A stretch of DNA of 64,000 nt from contig CAWUKV010000003.1 in the NCBI GenBank assembly GCA_963923025.1, positions 8,776-72,775 on the forward strand. The letters run 5' to 3'. Below are positions 15,685 to 37,286 of this stretch, one piece after another. Source of the DNA: an uncultured bacterium. Lineage in GTDB: Bacteria > Cyanobacteriota > Cyanobacteriia > Phormidesmidales > Phormidesmidaceae. The notes beneath the pieces were generated by a model, which was not told the origin of the DNA, made no database searches, and saw nothing but the letters and a program-made list of their open reading frames with translations. A program made the position numbers and the translations under genes. Numbering within the stretch: the stretch's first letter is position 1; each line of letters starts with the position of its first letter.

Positions 15685-15704
15685 ACAATTCCTCTGACGA
15701 CTTA

Positions 15705-17041: not shown

Positions 17042-17070
17042 GGCGGGTTGCCCTGGTTAGATTAACTGCG

Positions 17071-17613: not shown

Positions 17614-17722
17614 AGGCAGTAGCAGAATGGTCGTTACGAATGCTCACCTTGGGCTACAGTCCAAAATAGTGAGATTACGAGCTTCATCCAATCACCACCT
17701 AGGCCATCACAAGGTATTCCCC

Positions 17723-18097: not shown

Positions 18098-18146
18098 TCT
18101 GTCGCTATTGGACAAATGATTGAGAAGAGTTGACTTAGGAGAAAAC

Positions 18147-18308
18147 GATGAGCGGTGGCTTTACATCAGGGGGCGGCATTGGCGGCAATAAGGAACCTGG
18201 AGAAGAGCCCCCAGCCTGGTTTGGATGTCTGTTTATTATCGTTGTGGCAGTGTTTGTGATGACAGTAGTCCTGTGAAGGGCTTGTCCGAGCGGCATACAT
18301 TAAGATAA
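18147..18308 (+). CDS. small hypothetical protein (53 aa, Gly-rich N-terminus, Cys-rich hydrophobic middle), absent from the ORF track
   Basis: AGGAG lies 8 nt upstream of an ATG. The translation is MSGGFTSGGGIGGNKEPGEEPPAWFGCLFIIGCGSVCDDSSPVKGLSERHTLR. Its 3' end runs into repeated-element copy A. Confidence 0.3.
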
Positions 18309-18466
18309 TCACAGCACTATGCCAAAGACTATGCCAAATATCATTGCCTGCCATAGCTGTGACTCTCGCAAGTTTCAATTGCATTGAACTTGCGCCTCGC
18401 TTGACCTGCTGTTCTGCCAAGCTTTTGCCGGAATAGAACAGGTCCAGTCAAGCAAGAAACGCTATG
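18281..18466 (+). repeat. copy A of an unclassified roughly 160-190 nt repeated element with two conserved hairpins
   Basis: Aligns to 32188-32347 over a 5' block (cttgtcc..gcataca..attgcctg), hairpin 1 (GCAAGTTTCAAT-tgc-ATTGAAACTTGC at 18368-18393), hairpin 2 (cgcttgacctg...caggtccagtcaagcaag) and a 3' gaaacgctat. Confidence 0.6.
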
Positions 18467-18501
18467 TTTACCTTAAGTGCCCCTGAATCGGCTGTAGCGG
18501 C

Positions 18502-19182
18502 TCAATAGGGCGGGTCTGCAGGGCCAGTGTATCCACACATGCCGGTGCGGGGCGAGTTCACAATCAGCATGGGCTCACCGTAGTCGTCGTGAGGGTGTGC
18601 TTCGGCATGGCCGTCACATAGCGTCCCCTTAGAATCATCTTCGTAGATACATTCCAAACATAGGTGTGTAGCAGGCTGACCGCATTCGATGCAGCTTGAC
18701 TCGACAGGGTGGTTACGGGCCATCAGGTAGATTGGTTTGGCCGTTAGCGGTTTCCCTTCGCGGATGTCAACGAGCTTAACGAGCGTTTCTGAAGAGGTGC
18801 CAAAGTCGTAGACATGTTCCAGTGCCCCTGTTCGGGAGAAAACGGCATCAATTTTTCGAGTTTTACCAAAGCCGTTTTCGAACTGACCCACCATAAACTG
18901 GCTCATGTGACCGCAGCACTCCAGCCAGATCGCCCTTAGGTAATCGTCTAGGTGACCCAGCGTTTTGGTGCCACGCATTTCTAGGTTCAACCAGTAGTCC
19001 CCGCCGTAGGCATCTTGGATGCGCAGGTGATAGAGCGTTTCGGGCTTTGCTTTGCGGGATTCAGCCTTGGTGATTGCGGCCTGACGAGTTTTACAGCTTT
19101 TGAGATGTTTGGAGACACCGCCCTTAGACAGGGTTTTACCGCAGAAGATACAGTCGCCTTTAGTCTGCTGTTTTCGTGCCAT
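18502..19182 (-). CDS. hypothetical protein, N-terminal C4-type zinc-finger-like plus pRiA4b-ORF3-like domain (tentative)
   Basis: 226 aa ORF with CIFCG...C at the N-terminus, a C..CxxC..H cluster, and LYHLRIQDAYGG...HVYDFGTSSE resembling PF07929. Confidence 0.5.
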   Translation of the reverse strand: MARKQQTKGDCIFCGKTLSKGGVSKHLKSCKTRQAAITKAESRKAKPETLYHLRIQDAYGGDYWLNLEMRGTKTLGHLDDYLRAIWLECCGHMSQFMVGQFENGFGKTRKIDAVFSRTGALEHVYDFGTSSETLVKLVDIREGKPLTAKPIYLMARNHPVESSCIECGQPATHLCLECIYEDDSKGTLCDGHAEAHPHDDYGEPMLIVNSPRTGMCGYTGPADPPY

Positions 19183-19227
19183 AAGCCAAAAGATAACGCG
19201 CCGAAGATCAGCGGTGATGTTGCGTGC

Positions 19228-19770
19228 TTAAGCTCTAGTGTAAGAGACGATCTGCTCCCAAATATCTGGAAACTCAGCCTTGATTGCCTCAGCTTTAGCA
19301 ATTTCCATATCGCGATAGTCGAAGCCAGGGGCTACGGCTTCGCCCAGTAGGCCATATTCGCCAGCTTCTAAAACGGCAGCTTTCCAGTAACCGCCCGGGA
19401 CAAGCAGTTGGGGGACTTCACCCTTGGCTAAGTCAAGCCCCAGAACGTGTCGCTCTAGCTGACCCTCAAGGGTGATCAGCAGATAGGTGATGGGCGATCC
19501 GGCTTGGAAGTAGTGGAGGATGTCAGACTTGTTCTTGTGCAAGTGATCCACCGGTCGGTCATCGGTCAGTAGGTAATAAATGGAGGTGAGGAGGTTGCGA
19601 TCGCACCCCTCCCGCTCGGTTGGCATCGTTTGACTTGTACGGTAGGTTTCGGCAAAGTAGCCCCCCTCGACGTGCTCTACCAGGCCCAACTGCTGAATAA
19701 CTGTCTGTTTATCCACTGTGCTCGACGCTAAATTTTGACGCTGATCTTTGGCACCGATCATACCGACCAA
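19228..19770 (-). CDS. cupin-fold protein (DUF985-like), tentative
   Basis: 180 aa ORF with a beta-rich cupin-like core (HVEGGYFAE...HYFQAGSP). Confidence 0.5.
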   Translation of the reverse strand: MVGMIGAKDQRQNLASSTVDKQTVIQQLGLVEHVEGGYFAETYRTSQTMPTEREGCDRNLLTSIYYLLTDDRPVDHLHKNKSDILHYFQAGSPITYLLITLEGQLERHVLGLDLAKGEVPQLLVPGGYWKAAVLEAGEYGLLGEAVAPGFDYRDMEIAKAEAIKAEFPDIWEQIVSYTRA

Positions 19771-19826
19771 TCATACCGATTTGTGCTGGGAGCAGGCGGC
19801 TGCTATCCGTTAAAACACGCTATAGA

Positions 19827-20375
19827 ATGGGCAGTGACCGAAACAGGCAGGGTATGAGCGAGCAGGACGAGGCTAGGGTTGCCTATGCGGCGGGCCAAGC
19901 CGCCTTTGAACGGGGCAGCTATCGGCAAGCCGTGACGCAGTTTGAGCGAGCTAGGGGGCTCGCGGGTCAAGGAACGATCCTTGGGGGCGAAATCCAGCTA
20001 TGGCTCGCCAATGCCTATGCTGCCGTGGGTGAGGGCAATAACGCAGTCACCGCCTGTCAGGCCTTGGCCCAGCATCCTGACCCTGAAACCCGTAAGCAGG
20101 CCAAGCGGCTGGCCTACATTTTGCAGGCACCAGAACTGGCTACTAAGCCGGAGTGGATGAGCAAGATCCCGGACTTGGGCGGCATTGAGGGCGGCAACGA
20201 CTACAAGCTCACACAGTCTCGCTACGGCCAATCCAACAGCCGACCCATGCGCCGCCTTGCGCCGGAACCAGAGCCGTTGGATTTGAGCCAGGTAAATACA
20301 AAAGACAATCAGTTTGTGTGGGTGGCGCTGCTGGGCTGTGCACTAGTGCTAGGAGGATTGCTGTGGTTCAGTTAA
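19827..20375 (+). CDS. TPR-like protein with C-terminal transmembrane anchor
   Basis: 182 aa ORF with helical TPR-like repeats and a C-terminal hydrophobic helix (FVWVALLGCALVLGGLLWF). It overlaps the next gene by 13 nt. Confidence 0.55.
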   Translation: MGSDRNRQGMSEQDEARVAYAAGQAAFERGSYRQAVTQFERARGLAGQGTILGGEIQLWLANAYAAVGEGNNAVTACQALAQHPDPETRKQAKRLAYILQAPELATKPEWMSKIPDLGGIEGGNDYKLTQSRYGQSNSRPMRRLAPEPEPLDLSQVNTKDNQFVWVALLGCALVLGGLLWFS

Positions 20376-21067
20376 TACGGCATTGGGTCAAGCGTCTGGT
20401 TCTGATTGCGTTAGTGCTGTGCCTGACTGGGTGTGTGGACTACGACCTGGGCATTCAGTTCGATAGTCAGACCCACGGTACCCTCACGCAGACCCTGCAC
20501 CTGAGTGAGCGGGTAGCGCGGTTGAACCCCGACCGAGCCCAGCATTGGCTGCGTCAGTTTGAGCAGCGGGCCAAGCTCCAGGGCGGCAGGGTAAAACGGG
20601 TGGATGCCCGAACGGTGCAGGTTACGGTGCCGTTTAACAACGGGGCAGACCTCAGCGATAGTTACAATTCTCTGTTTGACACCGAAGAGAATCCAGCGCT
20701 GGGCCAGTTGCCCGGTTCGCCGCAGCTCACCTCGCACTTAAACCTGCATCAACAAAACCGAGTCTTGGCACTGCGTAATCAGCTCGATTTAGACATCGAC
20801 CTGACCTCGCTACCCGACCTCAACACGACCCGGCAAGATTGGCGGGTGCTCAATCTTGCCTTTCACCTCGTCACCCCTTGGGGTGTGGTCACCCAGTCTG
20901 GCGGCGTGGGGCGGGGCCGCGAGGTGATATGGCCGCTACAGCCAGGGCAGATCACGCACGTTCAGGCCGAGTTTTGGGTACCCAGCCCGATTGGCATTGG
21001 CGCAGGCGCGATCGCACTGCTGATGGGGCTGGGTTACCTGCTTAAATATGGCTTCGGGAGCCGCTGA
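20363..21067 (+). CDS. lipoprotein, DUF3153-like (tentative)
   Basis: GTG start with AGGAGG 7 nt upstream, a lipobox LCLTGC and a C-terminal transmembrane helix. Its stop overlaps the start of the downstream UPF0182 gene. Confidence 0.55.
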   Translation: MVQLIRHWVKRLVLIALVLCLTGCVDYDLGIQFDSQTHGTLTQTLHLSERVARLNPDRAQHWLRQFEQRAKLQGGRVKRVDARTVQVTVPFNNGADLSDSYNSLFDTEENPALGQLPGSPQLTSHLNLHQQNRVLALRNQLDLDIDLTSLPDLNTTRQDWRVLNLAFHLVTPWGVVTQSGGVGRGREVIWPLQPGQITHVQAEFWVPSPIGIGAGAIALLMGLGYLLKYGFGSR

Positions 21068-21069
21068 GA

Positions 21070-24000
21070 ATGGAAAAAGCGCTGATGCGGGTGAAGGTGA
21101 ACACTTGGCGATGGGTGGTTGCGATCGCGGCGATGCTGCTCAGCGTTGATATTGTCACCTACTTCATGGCCGAGGGGCTGTGGTTTGAGTCCGTGGACTA
21201 CCTGCAAGCCTTTTGGCTGCGGCTGCAAACCCAGTTGGGGCTAGGAGCACTGGGGCTGGCAGGCAGCTTTGGGTTCGCCCTGGTAAATCTGCTGCGGGCG
21301 CGGCGGCTCAGCGTTGACGACAACTGTATCTTGCCCAATGCCAACAATCGACGGACGGGCATTGGTTTGACGGGGCTGTTGCCACTGGCGGTGGGGCTGG
21401 CGGTGCTGATCATGGTGCTGCTGTTGTATCACGGTCAGCTGGCCGTTACCCGCTGGCATACTCAGGATGTTGGGGACGCACTACCGGCGCTGCCGCTGTG
21501 GCTCAACTTTCGGACGGGCTGGCAGGTAACGCAACAGGTGCTGGCGCTGCCGTGGTTAGGAGCAGTGCTGCTAGTGGGAGCGGTGGGTTTCCTGATATAC
21601 CCCATGCTGCTAGGGTATCTCAGCACCGTGGTCATCAGCCTCTGTTTTGGCCTGGTGCTGTCGTCCCAGTGGTCGAGAATTCTGCCCGCGCTCAACCCCA
21701 CCGCGTTTGGCATTGACGACCCACTATTCAACAACGACATTAGCTTTTACATTTTCCGACTGCCCATTCTCGAACTAGTGGAGTTTTGGATTTCCGGACT
21801 GTTGTTGTTTACCCTGGCGCTGGTAACGCTGGTATACCTGCTGGCGGGCAACAGCCTCAGTCAAGGGCGGTTTTTGGGCCTTGCTCCCCCGCAGCGGCGG
21901 CATCTGTTTGGCCTCTCCGGCGGGCTGTTGTTGACAACAGCTCTAGACAACTGGATTGCCCGCTACGAGCTGCTGTATTCGCCTCGGGGGGTAACCTTTG
22001 GAGCCAGCTACACCGATGTTGCCGTATCTCTGCCAGTGAATACGGGCTTGAGCATTCTGGCGCTGGTGCTGGCTGTCATTCTGCTATGGCGGACGCTATT
22101 TTGGGATACCACCTTTCGCGGGCTGGTGGAATGGCTGATGATGATTGGCCGCAACCAGTACGCCTACGTTCCCAAGGTACCGGTACGGCCTCGCAGTTCT
22201 CGACTGCTGATTAGCATTGTGCTGGGCTATTTGGCAGTGAGCGTGCTAGGCGCAACGGTAGTGCCGGGGATTGTGCAGCGGCTGGTAGTACAGCCGAACG
22301 AGCTCGAACGAGAAACGCCCTTCATTGAGAAAACAATTGCGTTTACCCGCCAAGCTTTTAACCTGACGGATGTTCAGGATGAGGTATTCATACCAGAAGA
22401 TTCTCTGACAGCGGCAGACTTGGAGCGCAACAACCTGACAGTCCGCAACATCCGCGTTTGGGACACCCGTCCCCTGCTAGAGAGTAACCGGCAGCTCCAG
22501 CAGATTCGCTCGTACTACGAGTTTGTAGATGCTGATGTCGACCGCTATACCCTGCGCAACGACGACGGCAGTACCGAGCGCCGTCAGGTAATTATTTCAG
22601 CGCGGGAGCTGAATACTGACCGATTAGATGAGATTGCCCAAACTTGGGTGAACCGACATTTGAGCTATACCCACGGCTACGGGTTCACCATGAGCCCAGT
22701 CAATACGGCGGGGGTCGGCGGCCTGCCGACCTACTTCATTAAAGACATTGCCCATGTCCCTAGCAACCCAGCGGTGGCCCGTAGCATTCCGGTAGGGGAG
22801 CCGCGCATCTACTTTGGCGAGCTGACAAACAACTACGTCATGACGTCGACTCGAGTAGAAGAGTTGGACTACCCCAGCGGCAGCGACAATGTGTACACCG
22901 TCTATGACGGGCAGGGCGGCATCAGCATTGGCGACCCCTTTCGGCGGTTGCTGTATGCCAAGCATCTAGGCGACTGGCAAATGCTGTTTACCGACAACTT
23001 TACGCCCGAGACACAGCTGTTGTTTCGGCGCAACATTCAAGACCGAGTGAAGCGGATTGCGCCGTTTCTGCAGTTTGACCAGGATCCCTACCTGGTAATT
23101 GCCAATGTACCCTCTGCCCCCGCCAACGAGCAAAACAAGCTGTATTGGATTGTGGATGCCTATACGACGAGCGATCGCTACCCCTATGCCGACCCAGAGC
23201 AAAACGAGTTCAACTACATCCGCAACTCGGTCAAGGCGGTGGTGAATGCGTACCAGGGGACGGTCGACTTTTACGTAGCCGATGCCGAAGACCCGGTCAT
23301 TCAAACTTGGGCCAGTCTATTTCCCAACATGTTTCAGCCGCTAGCAGACATGCCCACTGAGCTGGCGGCTCACATCCGCTACCCCCAAGACTATTCATTG
23401 GTGCAGTCTAATCAGCTGCTAACGTATCACATGACGGATCCGCGCGTGTTCTATAACCGTGAGGACCAGTGGCGGGCACCCAGCGAAATTTACGCCAACG
23501 AGCAGCAGGTAGTGGAACCCTACTATCTGATTATGAGGCTGCCGGATGCGGACGCTGAGGAGTTCATTCTCTTGCGTCCTTTCACGCCTCGTCAGCGTAA
23601 CAACCTGATTGCTTGGCTGGCGGCTCGTTCAGACGGCGAAAACTATGGGCGCATTTTGCTGTACCGCTTCCCCAAGCAGGAGCTCGTGTTTGGTCCAGAA
23701 CAGATTGAGGCTCGAATTAACCAGGATCCCGAGATTTCGCAGCGGATCTCCCTGTGGGACACCCAGGGCTCACGGGCGAATCAGGGCAATCTACTGGTAA
23801 TTCCCATTGAAGATTCTCTTTTGTACGTGGAGCCGTTATACCTAGAAGCAGAACAAAATCAGCTGCCAACCCTGGCACGAGTTATCGTGGCTTACCAAAA
23901 TAGAATTGCGATGGCAGAAACGCTGGATCAGTCGCTCAGTGCTATCTTTAACCAGCGCAAGTCGAGCAGCCCAGCGATTATTCGCGATCTTGAAAACAGC

Positions 24001-24084
24001 GAGGCTGATACGCCCGACCAAATCGACCAGCTGCTGCTACCGGATGAGCCAGCTCCGTCAAACACCATTGAGCCAAGCGAATAA
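21070..24084 (+). CDS. UPF0182 family membrane protein (paralog 1)
   Basis: 1004 aa ORF with an N-terminal multi-transmembrane region and a large extracytoplasmic domain carrying the conserved YIDAYTTSDRYPY and LLVIPIEDSLLYVEPLYL motifs. Confidence 0.85.
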   Translation: MEKALMRVKVNTWRWVVAIAAMLLSVDIVTYFMAEGLWFESVDYLQAFWLRLQTQLGLGALGLAGSFGFALVNLLRARRLSVDDNCILPNANNRRTGIGLTGLLPLAVGLAVLIMVLLLYHGQLAVTRWHTQDVGDALPALPLWLNFRTGWQVTQQVLALPWLGAVLLVGAVGFLIYPMLLGYLSTVVISLCFGLVLSSQWSRILPALNPTAFGIDDPLFNNDISFYIFRLPILELVEFWISGLLLFTLALVTLVYLLAGNSLSQGRFLGLAPPQRRHLFGLSGGLLLTTALDNWIARYELLYSPRGVTFGASYTDVAVSLPVNTGLSILALVLAVILLWRTLFWDTTFRGLVEWLMMIGRNQYAYVPKVPVRPRSSRLLISIVLGYLAVSVLGATVVPGIVQRLVVQPNELERETPFIEKTIAFTRQAFNLTDVQDEVFIPEDSLTAADLERNNLTVRNIRVWDTRPLLESNRQLQQIRSYYEFVDADVDRYTLRNDDGSTERRQVIISARELNTDRLDEIAQTWVNRHLSYTHGYGFTMSPVNTAGVGGLPTYFIKDIAHVPSNPAVARSIPVGEPRIYFGELTNNYVMTSTRVEELDYPSGSDNVYTVYDGQGGISIGDPFRRLLYAKHLGDWQMLFTDNFTPETQLLFRRNIQDRVKRIAPFLQFDQDPYLVIANVPSAPANEQNKLYWIVDAYTTSDRYPYADPEQNEFNYIRNSVKAVVNAYQGTVDFYVADAEDPVIQTWASLFPNMFQPLADMPTELAAHIRYPQDYSLVQSNQLLTYHMTDPRVFYNREDQWRAPSEIYANEQQVVEPYYLIMRLPDADAEEFILLRPFTPRQRNNLIAWLAARSDGENYGRILLYRFPKQELVFGPEQIEARINQDPEISQRISLWDTQGSRANQGNLLVIPIEDSLLYVEPLYLEAEQNQLPTLARVIVAYQNRIAMAETLDQSLSAIFNQRKSSSPAIIRDLENSEADTPDQIDQLLLPDEPAPSNTIEPSE

Positions 24085-24440
24085 AGGGGCTAGGGATGAG
24101 CCGTACGAATAGTTGTTTTACTGATATTCTGAAAAGCCATGAGCTAGAACAACTCCATATCAATATCAGTCCATCAGGTCTGAGCTCATAGGCTCCAAGC
24201 GGTGGCCTTATTGGTAGGCGCCGCGTTAGTGCAGCAGGGCGATCGCTACAGGGAAGACCCCAGAAGAAAACCCAACGACGAGACGACTCAGTCAAAAATT
24301 GCCGAATACAATGGCAGTATGGCGTACGCCCAAAACAACAGTCAGCTATGGACAGGCTACCAAACCAGCTCATCCCAAGCCGCACGCTCTGCTTGCCAAA
24401 CCACGATTGAGCTCGTCAAGGAGCCCATAAGGAGGAGGAG

Positions 24441-24599
24441 ATGCGTACCGCAAGACACGTAGGGTCACGTGCTGGCCCAAGACCGGTATCCAAAAACACA
24501 AATTTTCCTACACATTTATCTAAAGATGAAGCTATTGAACAAGCCCATTCGCGAGTTCCTAACCCCAAAAACCGCATCGCGTTTAATATTCCATGCTGA
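24441..24599 (+). CDS. small basic ORF (52 aa) translationally coupled to the downstream binding-protein gene
   Basis: AAGGAGGAGGAG lies immediately upstream of the ATG. Its stop overlaps the next start (ccATGcTGA). The translation is MRTARHVGSRAGPRPVSKNTNFPTHLSKDEAIEQAHSRVPNPKNRIAFNIPC. Confidence 0.4.
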   Translation: MRTARHVGSRAGPRPVSKNTNFPTHLSKDEAIEQAHSRVPNPKNRIAFNIPC

Positions 24600-25738: not shown

Positions 25739-25754
25739 GAGGTGCGTAGATCGA

Positions 25755-26753: not shown

Positions 26754-26779
26754 TGGTATTCGGCGCGATCGCGATACTA

Positions 26780-27343: not shown

Positions 27344-27425
27344 GGCTGATGACGACCCGCGTCTATGCCAGTCGCCTGTACAATATAATTAGAACACAAA
27401 GTATCTTGATCATCAAGTTAAAATT

Positions 27426-27875
27426 TTGAGTCATCCTGAAAGTCTAGAATCCATCATTCTTGCAGGGCGAAGAATTCATGCGGCCATTGACGCTGTAGAC
27501 TACGCCATTTCCGAACATCTCGGCATTCATCGCAACGATTTGCGGGCGCTTAACTTGCTAGAGGACGGTCCACTCTCCCCAAAAATGATTGCCGAGCGAG
27601 TTGGGCTAACTAGCGGCTCAGTCACCGCGCTGATTGACCGATTAGAAAAGGCAGGCTTTGTAGAACGCCGACCCTCAAAAACCGATCGCCGTTCGATAGA
27701 AGTTGGTATTGCACCGCATCGTTATGCAGAGATTGGTGCGCTGTATCGCCAGTGTGCCGCAGGGTTGATGAACAAGTTTGGCGACAAAACAGAAGATACG
27801 ATAAAAGCATCGGTAGCGGTGCTCTCAGAGTTTGCTGAGGCGATGGAGCAAGCAGCTGCATCACTAGAGGACTAG
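27426..27875 (+). CDS. MarR family transcriptional regulator
   Basis: Winged-helix segment LSPKMIAERVGLTSGSVTALIDRLEKAGFVERRPSKTDRR. Confidence 0.85.
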   Translation: MSHPESLESIILAGRRIHAAIDAVDYAISEHLGIHRNDLRALNLLEDGPLSPKMIAERVGLTSGSVTALIDRLEKAGFVERRPSKTDRRSIEVGIAPHRYAEIGALYRQCAAGLMNKFGDKTEDTIKASVAVLSEFAEAMEQAAASLED

Positions 27876-27939
27876 CAGCCTGTTAAACAACTGCCCCCAG
27901 CGCCAGCGCCCTGGGGGCAGTTCGGTCAGAGCGCTACAG

Positions 27940-29919
27940 CTATGCCTGAATGACGAAGTTGTCAGCGTCTAAGGTCGGTGCGCCTTCCAGCGTTGCATAC
28001 TGTCCGCCGCTGCCAAAACCTGCTTCCGCACCGTTGGCGTTGTAGTACAGCGTACCGGTATCGGCACCGTAAACAATCAGGGCATCGCTCAGTTCTGCCT
28101 CTTCGGCGCTGTTCACCACCGCAAACTCATCAGCAGATAGCGGCCCACCGACAGCACTGGTGAGCTGAGTAAAGACGGTCAGATCTAGCACAATGCTGTC
28201 AATGTCCTCAAAGTTCTGGATTTGATTGGTGCCGATATCTGCCGCATCAAAGGCAGCACCAGTGTCAAAGCCAAAGAAATCGGCCCCATCGCCGCCAATG
28301 AGAATATCGTTGCCACCACCACCAATCAGTAGGTCGGCCCCGCCGCCGCCAATGAGAATATCGTCGCCGGCACCGCCGATGAGAATGTCGTTACCCGCGC
28401 CACCGTCGGCCACGATTGGGGTTAATGTCGCGCTGGCATTGAGAAAATCATTACCCTCCCCACCAGAAAAAACTACAGACTGAACGTCGCTACCGGTCAG
28501 ATCCTCAACCGTCAGCGAATCATCACCACCCTGGCCGTTAATCTCAAACTGTTCGATCCCTTCGTTAGTGAGGGTAAACAGCCCCAGATTTAGGCGGTCA
28601 AAAATAGCCTGACCGTTCACCTGGCCTAAGTTGAACTCATCCCCAGGGCCGTCAGCGCCGTTGACCTGGGTAACGTCGAACCCGGCACCCCCATCAATGA
28701 AGTCGCTGCCGTCGCCGTTGTTCCAAATAAAGCGGTCGTCACCATCACCCAGGTTGGCAGTATCGCTGCCTCGCTGGCCCACAACAATGTCGTTGCCCGC
28801 CCCAGCAAAGAATGTGTCATCGGCGGAGCTGCCCAGCAGCAGGTCGTCACCATCACCCCCAAAAGCCTCAATCGTTGTCGTGCTTTCTCTGGCATCTAAG
28901 AGGTCATTTCCGTCACCGCCTGAGAAGACCACCTTTTTCACCGCACTGCCGGTCAGATCACCCACCGTCAGTGAATCGTCACCGCCGAGGCCATTGATTT
29001 CAAACCGCTCGACGTTCTCATTCGTCAGGGTAAACGGCCCCAGATTCAGGCGGTTGAAAATGGCCTGACCATTCTCCTGACTCAGGTCAAACTGGTCGCC
29101 AGGGCCGTCAGCCCCGTTGACCTGCGTGGTGTCGTAGCCCTTGCCACCGTCAATAAAGTCGCTGCCGTCACCGTTGTTCCAAACGAAACGATCGCGCCCT
29201 CCACCGAGGCGAGCAGTATCGCTGCCCCGCTGGCCCACAACAATATCGTCACCCGACCCGGCCACAAAAGTATCGTCCGCAGAGCCACCCAGCAGCAGAT
29301 CGTCACCGCTACCGCCCTTGGCTTTAATTTTAGTCGAACTCTCACGGGCATCTAACGTATCGTTGCCGTCGCCACCGGAGAAAACAACCTTCTTTACAGC
29401 GCTGTTGGACAAATCGCCAACCGTCAAAGAATCATCGCCACCCAGGCCATTGATTTCAAACCGTTCGATATTCTGGTTGGTGAGGGTAAACGGCCCCAGA
29501 TTCAGGCGGTTAAAGATGGCCTGTCCATGCGCTTCTCTCAGGTCGAACTGGTCGCCAGGGCCATCAGCACCGTTAACCTGCGTGGTGTCGTAGCCCTTGC
29601 CACCGTCAATAAAGTCGCTACCGTCACCGTTGTTCCAAACAAACCGATCGCGGCCTGCCCCCAGGAAGGCAACGTCGTTTCCTGTCTGACCAACAACGAC
29701 ATCGTTTCCACTACCGGCAAACATAACGTCGGTGCCAGCACCGCCTAAAATCGTATCGTCACCGTCTAAACCGAAGAAAATATCGTCCTGATCACCGCCT
29801 ATTAGCCCGTCATCGCCATTGCTGCCGATGAAAATGTCGCCCAGATCCTCAATCTCAGGCGCGTCATCGAAGATCGAACCGACAATCTGATTAACCAAAA
29901 ACGCTAGAAAAGAATTCAT
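27940..29919 (-). CDS. RTX-type calcium-binding protein with hemolysin-type GGxGxD repeats
   Basis: About 660 aa. The start is at MNSFLAF (29919) with AAGGAG upstream. It carries dozens of GGDGNDxL / GGxGxDxx nonapeptides and three roughly 150 aa internal repeats. Confidence 0.85.
   Translation of the reverse strand: MNSFLAFLVNQIVGSIFDDAPEIEDLGDIFIGSNGDDGLIGGDQDDIFFGLDGDDTILGGAGTDVMFAGSGNDVVVGQTGNDVAFLGAGRDRFVWNNGDGSDFIDGGKGYDTTQVNGADGPGDQFDLREAHGQAIFNRLNLGPFTLTNQNIERFEINGLGGDDSLTVGDLSNSAVKKVVFSGGDGNDTLDARESSTKIKAKGGSGDDLLLGGSADDTFVAGSGDDIVVGQRGSDTARLGGGRDRFVWNNGDGSDFIDGGKGYDTTQVNGADGPGDQFDLSQENGQAIFNRLNLGPFTLTNENVERFEINGLGGDDSLTVGDLTGSAVKKVVFSGGDGNDLLDARESTTTIEAFGGDGDDLLLGSSADDTFFAGAGNDIVVGQRGSDTANLGDGDDRFIWNNGDGSDFIDGGAGFDVTQVNGADGPGDEFNLGQVNGQAIFDRLNLGLFTLTNEGIEQFEINGQGGDDSLTVEDLTGSDVQSVVFSGGEGNDFLNASATLTPIVADGGAGNDILIGGAGDDILIGGGGADLLIGGGGNDILIGGDGADFFGFDTGAAFDAADIGTNQIQNFEDIDSIVLDLTVFTQLTSAVGGPLSADEFAVVNSAEEAELSDALIVYGADTGTLYYNANGAEAGFGSGGQYATLEGAPTLDADNFVIQA
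28290..29660. repeat. roughly 450 bp intragenic tandem repeat, about 3 copies, inside the RTX gene
   Basis: Near-identical DNA blocks occur at a 450 bp period. For example gtcgccagggccgtcagccccgttgacctgcgtggtgtcgtagcccttgccaccgtcaataaagtcgct is seen at about 29095 and again at about 29545. Confidence 0.7.
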
Positions 29920-30473
29920 TTCGGGGGTCTCCTTCAGTGTTAGATGAGAATGATGAGCTTTCTGAAAAAGAATTTGCACGCGAAGCCGTCCTCAACAGAT
30001 AAGCGAGGAATATGGCATTATCTTTAACAGAAGAGAGAGATTTTCTCTTTACTTTTTGTTATGGCAGCAGAACGACACAGGCATTAGATAGTTCGCTATT
30101 GCTACCAGATGACTCTCATAAAGGCTTATAACAAAGCCAACAGAGAAGAATTAAAAGCAAAGCCAGGGAATAACAGAATCGGGCATTCAGACATAGATAC
30201 GAGTCGTTGCCAACATTGGATGTGGCTTTTTCGAGATTTGACAGGTTAGTTGTGGCTGCTTGAGCTAGAGGACGTCAACCGAACCACTGTTTATAACTAG
30301 CGCCATTTACGTTAGGACACCGAGTACAGTGATCCTGCTTGTCATAAAGCGAAATGGCGTCACAGCCTTTTCCTGACGGATCTGACCGCTGCTGTATTTA
30401 CCTGTCTGAATACCAATACGACCGATGCGACCTATTGGATGAGTTTTTTTGATTTTTCCTTGAAGCCCTTGAC

Positions 30474-31265
30474 CTATATGGTTTCTGCAACCACTGGGCC
30501 AGCAGGCTGGTCGGGTAAGTTTACCGATTCAACTGTGACAATCACGTCTTTTACCCAGGGCCGCGATTGGTACACAGGCGGCATCTCTAGGGTGACAAAA
30601 ACGCTGCCGGAACGGGTTTGAAACTCACCACAGGGGATGTACTCACCCTGGTGGCTAACCCACAGGGCGTAGGTTTGGTCGGTAGATAGCGGAGCAAGGT
30701 TTTCAAAGGCGATCGCAGCTTGCAACCCGTCCGTATCGACAATCATGCTGCCAAACGCATCGGCATCCGCATCGGTACCCGCAAAGTCATAAAACCGGGT
30801 GGCAGGCTGCTGCAAAATCAGCTGGGCCTGCTGGGCGGGTGCAGCCGCCAGGAGCGCTTGCCGTAATTGCTGATTTGCCAGTCGTAGGCGATGGTTGTTT
30901 AACCCCAGTACTAGCGATAGCGCTGCCGCACCGACTGCCGCAGCGGCCAGCCCCCAGGTCACCATCGACCGTTGGGGACGTTGCAGCACGGGTGCGGCTT
31001 GGCTGACTGGTTGAGGTGTAGCGGTGTCTAGTTTTGTTAGGATGCGATCGCGCAAATAATCCGGCGGCGTCATCAGCGGTAGCTCGTCGAGCATCAACCC
31101 CACCGTGCTCTCCAGTCGGTTCACCTCTGCCCGCAGCTCCGGACGTTCGACCACCAATCGAGCAAAGTCGTCTGCCTGCTCAGCTGAGAGGTTGCCCGCC
31201 ACATAGTCAGCGGCCAGTTCTTTTAGGTTTCGTTCAGCATCCATAGGGCAGTCGTGGGTCGTCAA
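30474..31265 (-). CDS. anti-sigma factor (RskA-like, membrane-spanning)
   Basis: 263 aa ORF with an N-terminal anti-sigma domain, a central transmembrane helix (WGLAAAAVGAAALSLVLGL) and a C-terminal periplasmic domain. It lies directly downstream of the ECF sigma gene. Confidence 0.75.
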   Translation of the reverse strand: MTTHDCPMDAERNLKELAADYVAGNLSAEQADDFARLVVERPELRAEVNRLESTVGLMLDELPLMTPPDYLRDRILTKLDTATPQPVSQAAPVLQRPQRSMVTWGLAAAAVGAAALSLVLGLNNHRLRLANQQLRQALLAAAPAQQAQLILQQPATRFYDFAGTDADADAFGSMIVDTDGLQAAIAFENLAPLSTDQTYALWVSHQGEYIPCGEFQTRSGSVFVTLEMPPVYQSRPWVKDVIVTVESVNLPDQPAGPVVAETI

Positions 31266-31309
31266 TCACAGGGGTATCTTCAGGGTCGGTTATGAGGGCA
31301 TTGCAACCA

Positions 31310-31909
31310 TTACTCAACGAAATCTTGCAGCAAATCCTTTAGCTTTAGCAGGCCCTGACGCATTCGCGACTTGACCGTCCCTAAAGGAATGTTCGTTTGA
31401 CTAGCTATTTCGGATTGACTGAATCCATGATAGTAGGCCAGCCATAGCAGCTCCCGTTGCTTTTCGGGCAGGGTTTTCAGTGCCTCCCGAACTCGCTGTG
31501 CCCGTTCACCCAGCGTGGCCTGGGCTTCGGGCAACGAAAACGACTCCACCGGGGGAACCAGTCCTTTCAAAATGCGCTGTCGGTTGCTGCGGGTACGGAT
31601 GCGATCAATCGCTCGGTTGCGCGTCACCGTACTCAAAAACCGCGCCAAAGAACCACGGCTGGGGTCATAGGTTTGCTTCTGCCAAAGGTTCAGAAAGACT
31701 TCTTGAGTTAAGTCTTCGGCCTCCGGTCCGCGATTGAGAACCTTGAAGGCAATGGTATAGACCAAGCGTGAGTAGCGATCGTACAAAACCGTCAATGCGG
31801 CCTTATCCCCTCGCCGTAGGGCCAGCACCAACACGTCGTCAGTTGCGTCTTCCCAGTCTGAAACCTGACGTTTTGACCCTTCAGAAGGCATAGGCTCAGA
31901 ACCCATCAA
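31310..31909 (-). CDS. ECF (sigma-70 group 4) RNA polymerase sigma factor
   Basis: Sigma region 2 (LTQEVFLNLWQ) and region 4 helix-turn-helix (YHGFSQSEIASQTNIPLGTVKSRM). Confidence 0.85.
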   Translation of the reverse strand: MMGSEPMPSEGSKRQVSDWEDATDDVLVLALRRGDKAALTVLYDRYSRLVYTIAFKVLNRGPEAEDLTQEVFLNLWQKQTYDPSRGSLARFLSTVTRNRAIDRIRTRSNRQRILKGLVPPVESFSLPEAQATLGERAQRVREALKTLPEKQRELLWLAYYHGFSQSEIASQTNIPLGTVKSRMRQGLLKLKDLLQDFVE

Positions 31910-31998
31910 GGGGTCGTTCGTGTGAATCTATACAGCGTGGATACTGAAAACTATCTCATTTAGGCAGGGTGCGATCCTAGCAAGTTGAGAAACTTTAC

Positions 31999-32022
31999 GG
32001 GGGGGGCAAGGGGCAAGGGGGG
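31999..32022 (+). other. G-rich tract (G8-caa-G4-caa-G6) with G-quadruplex potential
   Basis: ggggggggcaaggggcaagggggg seen directly between the ECF sigma promoter region and repeat copy B. Confidence 0.4.
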
Positions 32023-32187
32023 ATTGGTTGGCCGCTAGTCTAGCGGTTGCCGCCTTGGCTTGCTCTTGATGAAACAGTTGACTTTTTAGATAGGGAAAAT
32101 TGTTGTGCGGTTGGGAGTATGGGATAACGCAAATTTAGTGTCCTGGGTTAGCACGTGGAGAAAGGAACAAGTAGACGTGTTAGGCGA

Positions 32188-32347
32188 CTTGTCCACGCTT
32201 AGCATACAAAAATTGCCTGTAACAAAGCGTATGGGCTGGGTATGTATAGCAAGTTTCAATTGCATTGAAACTTACGCCTCGCTTGACCTGCTGTGCTGTC
32301 AAGCTTCTATCGATCAAGAATGAGTCAAGTCAAGCGAGAAACGCTAT
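32188..32347 (+). repeat. copy B of the repeated two-hairpin element
   Basis: Hairpin 1 at 32249-32275. Hairpin 2 is a perfect 10 bp stem, CTCGCTTGAC ... GTCAAGCGAG, at 32278-32338. The terminal gaaacgctat lies at 32337-32346. Confidence 0.6.
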
Positions 32348-32628
32348 ACATGGCCGATTATGAGTAGATAGCCTTAAGTATTTGACGGCATGTCATTCCG
32401 TTCGCTTTAGCGGCTCCTTTGGAGCAACGGAGTCGAGGAATCTCTCGATGTATAACGCTTTCGCCGAGATGCTTCGACAAGCTCAGCATGACACTAGTGC
32501 ATCGTCAAAGCTTAATTTTAGGGTAGACGGAAGCGAGCTTACACCTGGCATCTTCGACTTTTATAGTGGACCCCAAAAACTGGACAGGTAGCTAAGCTCT
32601 GAATCACTCGGAAAAATGGGAGTCATTC

Positions 32629-32946
32629 ATGAGCAGAAAACGGAAACACTACAGCGCTCAGTTCAAGGCAAAAGTAGCCCTTGAAGCGGTTCGCGGAGAA
32701 AAGACATCAGCTGAATTAGCCAGTGCGTATGAAATCCATCCAACGCTGATCAATGGCTGGAAACGTCAGCTGCTGGAGGATGCCAGCGCACTGTTTGACG
32801 GCGGGACATCAGCCAGTAAAGTCGAGTCAGACACTGAGGCTCAGATTGCCGAGCTGTATCGCCAGATTGGTCAACTGACGGTCGAGCGTGATTTTTTAGC
32901 CAAGCGGTGCGCACAATCGGGACTGCCGAGCGCAAGGCCTTGGTAG
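32629..32946 (+). CDS. IS3-family transposase OrfA (helix-turn-helix plus leucine zipper)
   Basis: MSRKRKHYSAQFKAKVALEAVRGEKTSAELASAYEIHPTLINGWKRQ is the classic IS3/IS150 OrfA. Confidence 0.85.
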   Translation: MSRKRKHYSAQFKAKVALEAVRGEKTSAELASAYEIHPTLINGWKRQLLEDASALFDGGTSASKVESDTEAQIAELYRQIGQLTVERDFLAKRCAQSGLPSARPW

Positions 32947-33177
32947 ATGAGCAGCATCCGAGTTTGAGTCTGGTACGTCAGTGTCAACTGCTGGGTATCA
33001 GCCGTTCGAGTCTTTACTATAGCAGCCGCCAGATCCGTTAGGACAAGGCTGCGACAACCTATAGCTCTACGCCTAGCTCTACGCCTAGCGGGACTGCCGT
33101 ACTCGATGTCCTAAGCGATATGGCGCTAGCTATACCAGAGTGTCGGCCCGCCAGCTGAGGAGCTGACATTACTGCGG

Positions 33178-33870
33178 TTGATCGATGAGCAGTATCTGCA
33201 AACGCCGTTCTACGGCAGCAGGCGGATGATGGTGCATTTGCGTCAACTGGGCTATTCGGTGAATCGTAAGCGGGTGCAGCGTTTGATGCGTCAGCTGGGC
33301 TTACAAGCGGTCTATCCCAAGCCTAAGCTGAGCCAGCCCCATCCCGGACACAAGGTGTATCCCTACCTGCTGCGTGGGGTTGAGATTACGAGCGTCAATC
33401 AAGTCTGGAGTACTGATATCACCTATCTGCCAGTGCTAAAGGGCCATTTCTATCTCGTTGCTGTGATGGACTGGTTTAGTCGAAAGGTGCTGAGCTGGCG
33501 GATTTCAAACACGATGGACGGTCAGTTTTGTGTGGCGGCTTTGGAGGAAGCCTTAAACACATTTGCCAAGCCAGCGATCTTTAACTCTGACCACGGGGCT
33601 CAGTTTACGGCCAATGCTTTTACGGACTGTCTAAGGCAAGCAGGCATTGAGATCAGCATGGATGGCCGAGGCCGCTGTCATGACAACATCTTTATCGAGC
33701 GGTTGTGGCGGTCGGTGAAATGGGAGTTGATCTATCTCAAGACGTTTGATGATGGACGGCAGTTGTCCCGTGAGGTGTCGGACTGGTTTCACTGGTACAA
33801 CCGCCAGAGACTGCATCAGTCACTCAATTATCGGACACCGGATGAAATTTATTTTGAGGGAGGTGGATAA
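33178..33870 (+). pseudogene. IS3-family transposase OrfB (DDE integrase core); its N-terminal linker to orfA is disrupted
   Basis: The rve-domain sequence (DITYLPV...FNSDHGAQF...ERLWRSVKWE) is intact. Stops and a perfect 12 bp tandem duplication (agctctacgcct x2 at 33063-33086) lie between orfA and orfB in place of the usual -1 frameshift overlap. Confidence 0.7.
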
Positions 33871-33970
33871 ATATGATTTGAGCTGTGATACGCTTTGGAG
33901 CAAGAACAGATTTTGTTGTCCTTTCAGAGCTTAATTGCACTGCAAAACTGTCCAAGCTTTGGGGTCCACT

Positions 33971-35083
33971 TCAGATGTCATCGTATCGGGTCTCAAATGC
34001 CTTGAGTTGGTCAATGTCTAAGGCCTCCTCACCCTTGTCTTTGGCTTGATTGACCTGATGGAGTATGGTCACCAACAGCACGCTCATCTGATAGGCCCAC
34101 CATTGCTGATGATGCTCTAGGACAAACTGCAATTCCCTCAGGTGATGGGCATTACAGAGGAAATAAGCACAATCATAGCCGCTGTAGCTCTGCCAGCCAT
34201 CATGAACGGCCTTACCCGAGAACACGGGCAGTATGCCCATCTCGTCCATCGCCAAGCGGCCCCGTTTGGTATGGACAAAGTAGTAGGTCAACCCATCAGT
34301 GCAGGCCACATGCAGCCAAAACAGTTGGCCGTTGACCCGCATCCCCGTTTCGTCAAAGTGAACCAGGCTCGCGTTCGCCAACTGCGATTGAACGCGCTGC
34401 TCGACCAAGGCCAACTGCTCGAAGCAGTGCTTGCGGCTGTTATACAGCGTCCCTTCTGAGACCGTTGCCCCAAACAGGTCCTTCAGGACCTCAGTGGTGC
34501 GAGCTGAGGGCAGCAGTTGAGCCTCCATCAGGTACAGCATCACTCCTCTCAAGCGCGGACCATACTGCACCACGGTCGTTGCAGTGGCGGGAAAGCTTGC
34601 TTGGTTCTGATGACCACAGTGACGACAACACTTCACGCTAGCGCGATGTTCCGTCACCAGTGGCTCTATCGGCTCAATGTCAACCACCTGACGGGCTATC
34701 CACTCTTCAACCGCCTCGGCGGCTAGTGAACCACCGCACTGCTGACAATAATTCTCCTCGTGATATTCCACCCAATCAGCTTGCGACTGCCACTCTAACG
34801 TCTGGCCTTGATGACCCGGTTGTCCCCCTGACGACTTGCCACTCTTTCCCCGCAGGCTTTTCGTCCGCTTCTTAAACCCATCACCTGATGGCGGCTTGTG
34901 GCTGTTGCGACTCGTCTTTTTCTCTCGGCCTTCCAGCTTATCTAGACGCGCTTCTAGACTATCGAGACGCTTGAGTTCCTTAAGGAGCTGTTGCACCAAC
35001 GACACGACCGCTTCCTCGCCCTCTTGGTAGATGGCTCGGATCTCTGCTTCGCTCAGCTCAATTCGCTTCGGCGGTTTACTCAA
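33971..35083 (-). pseudogene. IS66-family transposase TnpC, C-terminally truncated (370 aa of about 520)
   Basis: Motifs KPPSGDGFKKR, a zinc finger CQQCGG...CRHCGH, HFDETG and NAHHLRELQ. The ORF ends 3 bp from the IS3 right end, and no tnpA or tnpB is present. Confidence 0.75.
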
Positions 35084-35172
35084 ATCTGACTATCGATACT
35101 CTGATTTATGATTTACACCAGCCTCGGGTAAAACTTTGAAAATATTGCTATTTTCTTTAGCCTGAGTAGTAA

Positions 35173-35295
35173 CAAGATTGGACAGAAGACGGTATTGCAA
35201 CAGACTTGTTGGAGCAAGGCATCACTAAAGATGAAATCGTCTTAGCCTTTCATCCCCCGCATCTGCGACAGTACACCGAGTTTTCTGCCGCCTGA
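35173..35295 (+). pseudogene. remnant of an XisI-like gene (C-terminal about 40 codons only)
   Basis: QDWTEDGIATDLLEQGITKDEIVLAFHPPHLRQYTEFSAA follows an in-frame TAG TAA. It resembles the C-terminus of cyanobacterial XisI proteins. Confidence 0.4.
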
Positions 35296-35299
35296 TATT

Positions 35300-35341
35300 A
35301 ATATTGTTGCCTGTGACGAAAATATTGTTGCCTGTGACGAA
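35300..35341. repeat. perfect 21 bp direct repeat x2 (aatattgttgcctgtgacgaa)
   Basis: Seen directly, immediately after the XisI remnant. Confidence 0.85.
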
Positions 35342-35552
35342 CACCGATCAAGGCCAGGGGGCATGCTAGATACTGCCTTCCTCAACCGCGAAAAGCTACT
35401 TCTCATTGGGTAGCCGTCGCCGAAGACTTTCTCCTGTGTTCAAAAAACTGATAGCCCTGTTGGATTGCTTGAAGAATGATGACTACCAGTACTTGAGACG
35501 AATGTGCATGAGAGGGTAAGGGGTTAGTTGCGCACCTTCCCAGCTTCGCCGA

Positions 35553-36500: not shown

Positions 36501-36521
36501 TGGGATTGAGTAATCTAACCT

Positions 36522-37244: not shown

Positions 37245-37286
37245 ATATGAACACCCCTTCATCCTTTTGCCTTCCGCCTTTCCACT

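Follow-up and report, generated by a model that had tools for sequence, protein, structure and literature searches.

A 17-kb stretch out of gene order in a marine filamentous cyanobacterium, best read as ordinary genome plasticity

Does a stretch of about 17 kb (18.3–35.6 kb) that is out of gene order in a marine filamentous cyanobacterium, relative to the closest relative found, represent an acquired accessory island, or are these long-resident genes that have come to lie together? The initial annotation favored the former, placing an accessory gene patch at 18100–35550. Against the MAG J06632_22 this is the largest interval without shared gene order in the window (the whole 64,000-nucleotide stretch of DNA that was analysed), and the proposed borders are nearly exact, as gene order is shared with J06632_22 up to 18,277 and again from 35,622. 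The best reading of the interval is ordinary genome plasticity, because it consists for the most part of cyanobacterial genes of long residence, reordered by insertion sequences (IS), and is not a foreign island. The features framing it are these:

11088–15684, minus strand: NadE-NrtR/NUDIX-NMNAT-NAPRTase (Pfam and gene calls)
16154–17041, plus strand: UbiA (Pfam and gene calls)
between UbiA and VOC, minus strand: 180-aa membrane protein (gene call)
17723–18097, plus strand: VOC/glyoxalase (Pfam and gene calls)
18148–18276, plus strand: conserved 42-aa ORF, closing the left conserved block (11088–18276)
18366–18464, plus strand: element A, copy 1, a 99-bp MITE-like double hairpin
35553–36500: LdcA (Pfam and gene calls), start of the right conserved block
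35553–40524: right conserved block (LdcA, rhomboid, 194-aa protein, Band_7, RlmN, 62-aa ORF)

Window positions 11098–18277 are colinear with J06632_22 contig L087, with amino acid identities of 86–95% for most genes and the 180-aa membrane protein as an outlier at 61%. Because the conserved block extends through the 42-aa ORF, the true left break is at 18.28–18.47 kb. At the other side, positions 35622–40524 are colinear with J06632_22 contig L089 at 83–97% amino acid identity. A direct join of UbiA/VOC to LdcA/rhomboid had been predicted for relatives. This fails in J06632_22, where an ISAs1-like IS and then the contig end follow VOC on L087, and where other genes (for a histidine kinase, HCP and CTDH, plus a CrtW-like remnant) occupy at least 4.8 kb upstream of LdcA; nor is the gene order of the window found to be kept in relatives. 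The left edge is polymorphic within the species as well. The same-species contig L130 (99.65% identical) tracks the window to 18,473, 9 bp past the first copy of element A, and then diverges: an ISAs1-like IS comes next and after it TetR, CHRD and hydrolase genes instead of the window sequence, which is a rearrangement and not a simple insertion. Two further contigs, L132 and L133, break within this copy of element A, at 18399. Gene order is therefore broken at both edges, with a within-species alternative junction beside an IS.

Being out of gene order does not imply that genes are accessory, because the blocks shared with J06632_22 are short (5–11 kb) everywhere and uvrC likewise falls in a gap between them. 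These blocks measure 7.2, 4.9 and at least 10.6 kb, and the order breaks at five points from 11 to 54.5 kb; scrambled gene order is the background state in this comparison.

All of the gene content named in the initial annotation is found by Pfam and gene calls, including a second UPF0182 copy in the window:

18502–19182, minus strand: zinc-finger protein, 226 aa, weakly PRiA4_ORF3-like
19228–19716, minus strand: Cupin_5 (DUF985) protein (Pfam E=8.6e-46)
19854–20375, plus strand: TPR protein, overlapping the DUF3153 gene
20363–21067, plus strand: DUF3153 protein, directly 5' of UPF0182-1
21070–24084, plus strand: UPF0182 paralogue 1, UPF0182-1 (Pfam E=1.6e-289)
24593–25738, plus strand: NMT1/SsuA-like binding protein
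25755–26753, plus strand: Rieske/VanA_C oxygenase
26780–27328, minus strand: SRPBCC/AHSA1 (Pfam), divergent from MarR
27426–27875, plus strand: MarR (Pfam)
27940–29919, minus strand: RTX calcium-binding repeat protein, with 456-bp internal repeats
30282–30356, no strand assigned: element B, MITE-like, with a second copy at 48704–48778
30474–31244, minus strand: RskA-type anti-sigma factor, downstream of the ECF sigma factor
31310–31891, minus strand: ECF sigma factor, exceeding the NCBIfam PRK12519 cut-off
32247–32346, plus strand: element A, copy 2, 100 bp, with TA on both sides
50712–53582, minus strand: UPF0182, second copy

The PRiA4-ORF3-like label of the zinc-finger protein stands only as a weak resemblance, with a sub-threshold match to PF07929 (E=0.009, 16 bits where the cut-off is 26.6), a domain present in 8 of 120 listed homologues. 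There are more than 3,200 homologues of approximately 60–78% identity and near-constant length (226–228 aa), in cyanobacteria and some Chloroflexota. No orthologue above 80% is seen in the two nearest MAGs, which are fragmentary, and the best non-self match among the matches listed is 78%. UPF0182-1 has orthologues that are 87% identical in J06648_16, 86–92% in J06632_22 and 49–70% in other cyanobacteria, and their neighbours differ in every case: the J06632_22 gene lies alone beside PlsC/FabD, and that of J06648_16 has yet other neighbours. Its divergence from J06632_22 is within the range of most flank genes (83–97%). Both UPF0182 paralogues have orthologues in relatives, conserved across the clade, and both are old. 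The TPR and DUF3153 genes, also adjacent on 2.1-kb same-species contigs, had been called partner genes of UPF0182; they are not conserved partners, being found within 10 kb of UPF0182 at none of about 30 cyanobacterial UPF0182 loci.

The binding protein and the Rieske oxygenase also occur as a pair in the MAG P01_D01_bin.1 (85% and 82% amino acid identity), where an ABC ATPase follows the Rieske gene and the upstream region differs from that of the window. As no ABC partner genes lie beside the binding protein in the window, it was rightly described as an orphan. Relatives thus carry orthologues of patch genes (UPF0182-1 and the binding-protein/Rieske pair) at other loci. The sigma and anti-sigma genes are found at 99.4–99.7% on contigs L135 and L136 from other samples, and identity within the population is equal in the patch (99.4–99.7%) and the flanks (99.2–99.85%).

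Composition provides further insight. There are 9 HIP1 sites in the 13.9 kb from 18.1 to 32.0 kb (0.65/kb, 26-fold over chance, against 0.58/kb in the whole window), with none in the RTX gene, and codon bias in the patch matches that of the flanks (p=0.82); by these two measures the sequence is native to 32 kb. Tetranucleotide distance stays normal as far as about 26 kb and rises mildly at 26–32 kb (z 1.6–1.9), an increase to which the repetitive RTX gene contributes; only 32–36 kb stands out clearly (z=2.5). Some patch genes, namely the zinc-finger protein, the cupin and those from Rieske through sigma, have a slightly reduced GC3 (median 0.595 versus 0.655, p=0.03); both the minimum GC3 (0.46) and the strongest codon bias of the window belong to MarR. 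The k-mer and GC comparison suggested for 18–35 kb therefore bears out an unusual composition at 32–36 kb, along with the slight drop in GC3, but not at 18.5–26 kb, where composition is native. The cargo had been considered typical of the flexible genome; with native HIP1 density and codon bias, and with UPF0182-1 and the zinc-finger family conserved, it is not.

The nested IS3, IS66 and xisI remnants reported at the right end are present, and both perfect tandem duplications are real:

32567–33969, plus strand: IS3-family element, ends TG...CA
32629–32946, plus strand: IS3 orfA
33062–33132, inside IS3: B-like MITE, 71 bp, holding a 12-bp tandem duplication
33062–33089: perfect tandem duplication, 12 bp x2.3
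33178–33870, plus strand: IS3 orfB, interrupted by the 71-bp B-like MITE
33971–35170, minus strand: IS66-family element, 3' end truncated by IS3
33971–35083, minus strand: truncated IS66 transposase, 370 aa
35173–35295, plus strand: xisI C-terminal remnant (XisI profile positions 72–109 of 110, E=1.3e-13)
35300–35341, plus strand: perfect tandem duplication, 21 bp x2

At the ends of the IS3 element the sequence shows no matching target duplication. The IS66 transposase corresponds to residues 1–370 of a 492-aa population copy (99.2% identity) and is cut exactly at the IS3 edge, the missing remainder being absent from the window. IS66 in turn cuts xisI, and this insertion is strain-specific: two contigs of the same species, L082 and L083, lack it and part from the window upstream of 35171, and L082 retains XisI positions 5–109 with one in-frame stop. 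Since L082 also has the 21-bp duplication, the duplication predates the IS66 insertion.

A plausible explanation, which we hold with slightly better than even confidence, is that the interval is a plasticity zone in which IS-associated rearrangement has joined at least five native modules into a mosaic, with a recent IS pile-up at the right. The modules would be the zinc-finger protein and cupin; TPR, DUF3153 and UPF0182-1; the binding protein and Rieske oxygenase, severed from their ABC partners; SRPBCC, MarR and RTX; and the ECF sigma and anti-sigma factors. They would have become neighbours by repeated IS- and repeat-associated rearrangement, that is, transposition and then recombination, deletion or inversion between IS copies. 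In the pile-up, IS66 would have entered xisI, IS3 would then have truncated IS66, and the MITE would have inserted into IS3. We infer that the arrangement stems from IS recombination rather than from horizontal acquisition of one block, although the lower GC3 in part, the mild tetranucleotide rise at 26–32 kb and the zinc-finger orthologue that is not seen count against a native mosaic.

The main reading of the initial annotation, a single horizontally acquired genomic island between VOC and LdcA, is in our view very improbable. It retains an interval that is out of order between conserved blocks, a left edge that is polymorphic in the species, recent mobile-element remnants at one end and slightly lower GC3 in some genes. 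However, composition is mostly native in HIP1 density and codon bias, the paralogues are old, UPF0182-1 is as similar to its J06632_22 orthologue as most flank genes are to theirs, the modules are dispersed at other loci in relatives, and the flanks are not joined in J06632_22. An att-like exact repeat is also lacking, and as first noted there is neither tRNA nor integrase: a search of all 64 kb finds no tRNA, and Pfam finds no tyrosine or serine recombinase domains in the window, only DDE transposases. Element A, put forward as a possible border mark, is a dispersed MITE-like element that occurs in other genomes and contexts too, and not an att pair. A variant to which we give the least credence of all is that its direct copies bracket a composite mobile unit of 13.8 kb (18465–32246), which recombination or transposition at these copies could excise or may have moved in one piece. 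These two copies are the only ones in 64 kb (0.01 matches expected by chance), and the left one adjoins the strain-level breakpoint of L130. Yet they share only about 84% identity over 100 bp, independent copies elsewhere each have their own TA flanks, L130 has an IS after copy 1 and not the sequence that follows copy 2, and no variant deleted between the copies is seen.

A more credible alternative, though still an improbable one, is a replacement-type flexible island at a fixed hot spot, where the flanks stay neighbours in all related genomes and the cargo differs by strain, recombination in the conserved flanks or at repeats swapping one set for another. The cargoes would be the window set, the ISAs1-TetR-CHRD-hydrolase set of L130, and the IS with histidine kinase, HCP, CTDH and CrtW of J06632_22. 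Content does switch exactly at the inner edges of both conserved blocks, in the relative and in the sister strain; IS elements are at the left edge in two lineages; and L130 comes from the same sample as L083, which has the IS66-free xisI-LdcA edge. Against this, no contig of another genome spans both flanks, each ending earlier, and the cargo consists of conserved, native-looking genes found at other loci in relatives. As gene order breaks often across the whole window, a pair of breakpoints 17 kb apart can be unrelated. We think it unlikely, more so than the hot spot, that the right junction was mis-joined in assembly. In that case the patch and the LdcA block might not be neighbours in the real chromosome, because the path from sigma to LdcA crosses IS3 and IS66 sequence with other copies in the genome, IS3 orfA and the IS66 transposase having many near-identical ones on other contigs. 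The source is a metagenome scaffold, and contigs of other samples stop at 32430, just past the second copy of element A (the same-species L136), or begin within the xisI region (L082, L083). None of them crosses 32.43–35.17 kb, and the join there is backed by the window organism's own two assemblies and no other. These, a 69-kb ENA scaffold and a 72.8-kb NCBI contig, nevertheless give the same path, and unique junctions (MITE inside IS3, IS3/IS66 and IS66/xisI) are present along it.

IS-rich cyanobacteria undergo IS-driven rearrangement and have low conservation of gene order. The window resembles them in its short blocks shared with a relative at about 78% nucleotide identity, in the ISAs1-like, IS3 and IS66 elements at its breakpoints, and in its strain-variable IS insertions and nested or truncated IS fragments. 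Nothing essential sets it apart, and our plasticity zone would be one more instance, from an uncultured marine Leptolyngbya-like lineage. Marine picocyanobacteria have flexible or hypervariable genomic islands with conserved flanks and variable content. Conserved flanks and content differing among close relatives are seen here as well, whereas the cargo is compositionally native and includes clade-conserved genes, the edges are without tRNA or integrase, and no contig of another genome links the flanks. Classical tRNA/integrase islands and ICEs are matched in size (about 17 kb), in mobile debris at one edge and in direct repeats near the edges. In contrast to these, the window has no tRNA, tyrosine or serine recombinase or conjugation genes, its repeats are imperfect copies of a dispersed MITE, and its composition is not foreign.

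Judged by sequence, elements A and B are themselves similar to Tc1/IS630-type TA-target MITEs: they are 70–100 bp long and non-coding, with TA on both sides, short terminal inverted repeats (TAGC...GCTA), sharp borders, strong hairpins and several copies in unrelated contexts. They differ in that no partner transposase is identified for either and only six copies of A are seen. Two compensatory base-pair changes in the hairpin hint at selection on it.

The stretch from about 18.3 to 35.6 kb (the patch) is, in our judgement and with moderate confidence, a plasticity zone of native gene modules with a recent pile-up of IS and MITE sequences at its right edge. Native modules would have been joined by repeated IS-associated rearrangement, and the pile-up at the right edge would then have followed. 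The patch is a commonplace case of a known phenomenon; of some local interest are the IS polymorphisms between strains and the small, structured, MITE-like repeats at its junctions. The initial annotation described it as accessory DNA bounded by repeats and IS debris; the observations behind that description are confirmed and the interpretation is partly supported. Every gene it listed was found in its place by Pfam and the public gene calls, and the two perfect tandem duplications (12 bp at 33062–33089 and 21 bp at 35300–35341) are real.

Genes of the patch and its flanks, in window coordinates
11088–15684 (-), left flank: NAD cluster of NadE, NrtR-like NUDIX regulator, NMNAT and NAPRTase, with gene order kept in the relative J06632_22
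left flank, continued: UbiA, membrane protein, VOC/glyoxalase protein
18148–18276 (+): 42-aa ORF downstream of VOC
18502–19182 (-), patch, first half: 226-aa zinc-finger protein
first half, continued: Cupin_5, TPR and DUF3153 proteins
21070–24084 (+): UPF0182, the paralogue inside the patch
second half: NMT1/SsuA-like binding protein, Rieske/VanA_C oxygenase, SRPBCC protein, MarR
27940–29919 (-): RTX protein, with internal repeats at 28493–29665
second half, continued: ECF sigma factor
30474–31244: RskA-type anti-sigma factor
right end of patch: IS3, truncated IS66, xisI remnant
right flank: LdcA, rhomboid, Band_7, RlmN, UvrC
50712–53582 (-): second UPF0182 paralogue

Uncultured marine Leptolyngbya-like cyanobacteria, the MAGs J06632_22 (GCA_039821475.1) and J06648_16, were the nearest genomes found. 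J06632_22 shares about 78% nucleotide identity with the window and 83–97% identity in most proteins, and next come Leptothoe, Adonisia and Leptolyngbya sp. Heron Island J at about 65–70% protein identity. To examine the borders we compared J06632_22 contigs L087 and L089, with L139 as a control. L087 is colinear with 11098–18277, from NadE through VOC plus the conserved 42-aa ORF, and then continues into 510 bp of unrelated sequence with the end of an ISAs1-like transposase before the contig ends. L089 is colinear with 35622–40524, from LdcA through RlmN plus a 62-aa ORF, after which a metallophosphatase stands in place of the window's uvrC; upstream of LdcA it carries a histidine kinase, HCP (Carot_N), CTDH (NTF2), two hypothetical genes and a CrtW-like remnant, the last being found there instead of xisI, which is absent from this position. 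Because colinearity ends at 18277 and 35622, the limits drawn earlier at 18.1 and 35.55 kb lie no more than about 200 bp from the measured limits of shared gene order. The direct VOC–LdcA junction predicted for relatives fails on the available J06632_22 contigs, and no contig linking both flanks in another genome was found among those compared. Gene order conserved across relatives, which would have spoken for core DNA, was not seen either, the patch being out of order with J06632_22.

Over 11–54.5 kb the window and J06632_22 are separated by five breakpoints. The control contig is colinear with 43845–54478 and then breaks, so that the shared blocks measure 7.2, 4.9 and at least 10.6 kb; the patch accounts for a gap of 17.3 kb between them, and uvrC with its small neighbours (40525–43844) for one of 3.3 kb. 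The relatives at 65–70% protein identity have no neighbours in common with the window, even for UbiA and LdcA (for example on contigs L084 and L085). With breakpoints this frequent, blocks this short and no shared neighbours in the more distant relatives, absent sharing of gene order is the norm here and by itself cannot identify accessory DNA or tell accessory from core genes. A general caution follows: in IS-rich filamentous cyanobacteria, where shared gene-order blocks extend over only a few kb, an island-like stretch can be made up of genes that are conserved and vertically inherited and have simply changed place. Density of the HIP1 octamer and equal divergence from relatives are cheap added checks.

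HIP1 (GCGATCGC), a cyanobacterial octamer used as a marker of nativeness, occurs at 37 sites in the window against 1.4 expected. Nine of these lie in 18.1–32.0 kb (0.65/kb, compared with 0.58/kb for the whole window) and none in the IS cluster at 32.0–35.5 kb. A k-mer check proposed for 18–35 kb found atypical composition only in the IS cluster: tetranucleotide distance from the rest of the window peaks at 32–36 kb (z=2.5), is mildly raised at 26–32 kb (z 1.6–1.9), where the repetitive RTX gene lies, and is unremarkable over 18–26 kb, z being at most 1.3 up to 26 kb. GC and GC skew, suggested as a companion check, follow gene orientation and reveal nothing further. Codon bias does not differ between patch and flank genes (p=0.82; 0.95 when length-corrected), and GC3 is marginally lower in the patch (0.595 versus 0.655, p=0.03).

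The individual genes also have relatives elsewhere, the patch UPF0182 gene and the binding-protein/Rieske pair both being present in related genomes at other loci. The two UPF0182 paralogues are about 42–47% identical to each other, and both have orthologues in J06632_22 (86–92% and 86%) as well as in Leptothoe, Heron Island J and other members of the Leptothoe/Leptolyngbya-like clade. The duplication is old, because both paralogues are conserved with orthologues across the clade, and the patch gene is not a stray second copy. Its neighbours differ in each of three related genomes; none of the 80 UPF0182 loci returned by a genome scan has another gene of the 64-kb window within 10 kb, and DUF3153 and TPR appear as conserved neighbours nowhere else in the UPF0182 loci examined. 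These loci testify to scrambling but give no ancestral context. In the related MAG P01_D01_bin.1 the binding protein and Rieske oxygenase (85% and 82% identity) lie in another neighbourhood and are followed by an ABC ATPase, and for this reason we consider the window pair a cut-off piece of a transporter/oxygenase operon.

The family of the 226-aa zinc-finger protein numbers more than 3,200 members, constant in length and about 60–78% identical, in cyanobacteria and some Chloroflexota, and has no Pfam assignment above threshold. A zinc-finger protein is indeed present as first described; the PRiA4_ORF3 label attached to it rests below cut-off (PF07929, E=0.009, 16.2 bits against a gathering cut-off of 26.6), with a precomputed PF07929 match in 8 of 120 listed homologues, and denotes at most a distant resemblance. 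The ECF sigma factor scores above the NCBIfam PRK12519 cut-off. A sigma/anti-sigma pair, sigG-sapG, is reported to be conserved in cyanobacteria (PMC2758279), and the patch pair is a candidate counterpart, offered as a lead only. The RTX gene holds 2.6 copies of a 456-bp repeat (78% identity) together with 27-bp nonapeptide-type repeats and has no HIP1 site. PADLOC identified no defence systems in the patch, apart from generic winged-helix similarity of MarR.

The right edge records a succession of events. IS3 elements are recognized by an orfA HTH, an orfB DDE domain (rve), TG...CA inverted-repeat ends and a length of about 1.2–1.5 kb; the window copy has HTH_Tnp_1 followed by HTH_21, rve and rve_3, an inverted repeat (I6) and ends read from the sequence, and measures 1,403 bp, of which 71 bp are a MITE interrupting orfB. 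Inspection of the sequence found no matching target duplication at its TG...CA ends, which fits an IS-associated deletion. The neighbouring IS66 has DDE_Tnp_IS66, zf-IS66 and DUF6444 domains, and its transposase comprises residues 1–370 of a 492-aa population copy, stopping precisely at the edge of IS3; the window lacks the remaining residues, and this copy has neither the accessory tnpA/tnpB genes nor the second end. The xisI remnant matches the XisI profile at positions 72–109 of 110 (E=1.3e-13). In two sister-strain contigs, L082 and L083, agreement with the window begins only at 35171, and upstream of this point they carry an almost full-length xisI with one in-frame stop (bases 1–384; positions 5–109 in L082, E=1.3e-31). 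The IS66 insertion is therefore strain-specific and, given the stop in the sister strains, xisI was probably a pseudogene already before IS66 landed. The 21-bp duplication is also found in strains without IS66. L082 and L083 begin at one and the same base, possibly within the end of xisH, and this points to a repeat boundary.

Small repeats accompany these junctions. Element A, 100 bp long, has sharp ends common to its six copies (TAGCAAGTTTC...GAAACGCTA), most of which are flanked by TA; its consensus forms a double hairpin (z about -3 to -5), with two compensatory base-pair changes among the six.

Small repeats
element A, window: 18366–18464 (copy 1) and 32247–32346 (copy 2), in direct orientation
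element A, other contigs: L001 13590–13694; L098 about 1637–1741; L099 about 111–212; L121 about 706–810
element B: 30282–30356 and 48704–48778
B-like copy: 33062–33132, TA-flanked, interrupting IS3 orfB and holding the 12-bp perfect tandem duplication

Of the four copies of element A outside the window, one is in J06648_16, 560 bp downstream of UPF0182, and the others are on unrelated metagenome contigs; a metagenome scan with an exact 19-mer of the element gave 38 matches, only three of which carry the element in full, the rest being due to chance. Element A has the features of a MITE (short, non-coding, with terminal inverted repeats, target duplication and dispersed copies), no partner transposase was identified, and it has no match in Rfam, which gave none at gathering thresholds for the whole window. 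Because copies recur in other genomes and contexts, element A is a dispersed MITE-like repeat and not an att pair; the two window copies are about 84% identical, and those in L001, L098, L099 and L121 lie in unrelated contexts. The direct pair first noted does coincide with the junctions, but as a dispersed repeat and not as an attachment site.

Contigs from other samples bear on how the patch arose. Identity between the window and a 69-kb ENA metagenome scaffold (DRIS22-1, SAMN24661204, scaffold_42) is 99.9%, the differences being a few substitutions and indels, one of them of 3 bp in the anti-sigma gene. In that gene, compared on L086 and L081, the 3-bp indel shows as 256 versus 257 aa. Proteins of the window are found on a 72.8-kb NCBI contig as well. 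Contigs of four other samples are 99.2–99.85% identical to the window, with the patch interior colinear at 21160–26487, 26415–31305 and 30254–32430 and no more diverged than the flanks. One sister-strain contig, L131, has the left junction as in the window (VOC, 42-aa ORF, element A, zinc-finger gene). Another, L130, matches only up to 18473, 9 bp past element A, and continues with an ISAs1-like IS (end CAGGGTTATTTCATTCTA) followed by TetR, CHRD and hydrolase genes that are not in the window. Since the sequence past its IS differs from the window continuation, L130 carries a rearrangement or replacement and not a plain insertion. L130 and L083 stem from one sample, SAMN24661215. ISAs1-like elements lie just right of the 42-aa ORF in both L130 (3668–7555) and L087 (8654–8787), in opposite orientations, and this site may be an IS insertion hot spot.

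Each flank is conserved, but the adjoining sequence differs both in J06632_22 and in the sister strain, as would be the case for a flexible island of the replacement type at a fixed hot spot; with breakpoints frequent throughout the window and some of the patch genes at other loci in relatives, we regard this explanation as unlikely. An assembly mis-join through IS copies at 32.43–35.17 kb would account for the colinear interior ending at 32430 and the sister-strain match resuming at 35171. The window agrees with the 69-kb scaffold, and we give a mis-join a low probability. A single acquired island, for which the lack of shared order between conserved flanks might speak, is very improbable: ARAGORN found no tRNA or tmRNA in the 64 kb, the only recombinase domains there in Pfam are DDE transposases (both absences having been noted at the outset), and 18.5–32 kb is native in HIP1 and in codon bias (p=0.82). 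As regards presence or absence as one block, the patch is out of order in J06632_22 and one sister-strain contig diverges at 18473, yet the patch UPF0182 gene and the binding-protein/Rieske pair occur at other loci in relatives. Element A is the only flanking direct repeat, none derived from an attachment site being found, and a unit bracketed by its two copies is the least credible of these explanations, given the dispersal of the element.

Having favoured a plasticity zone of native modules, we also considered a more active part for element A, as a preferred landing or recombination site at whose hairpins ISs insert and strains swap or re-join cassettes. L130 departs from the window 9 bp away from copy 1, and the breaks of short-read contigs fall within or close to the two copies. 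We think such a role doubtful at best; if true, it would account for the presence of a copy at each end of the 13.8-kb portion of the patch outside the IS cluster, and for the position of an ISAs1-like element only 9 bp away from copy 1 in the sister strain.

Small dispersed repeats are common in this lineage. Further short intergenic repeats lie at about 62742–62858, 43331–43395 and 42673–42715, with copies 79–100% identical on J06632_22 contigs L089 and L139 (twice) and on L121. The 42-aa ORF at the left border, Gly-rich at its N-terminus and with a hydrophobic tail, is conserved both in J06632_22 and in all same-species contigs and is probably a real small membrane protein.
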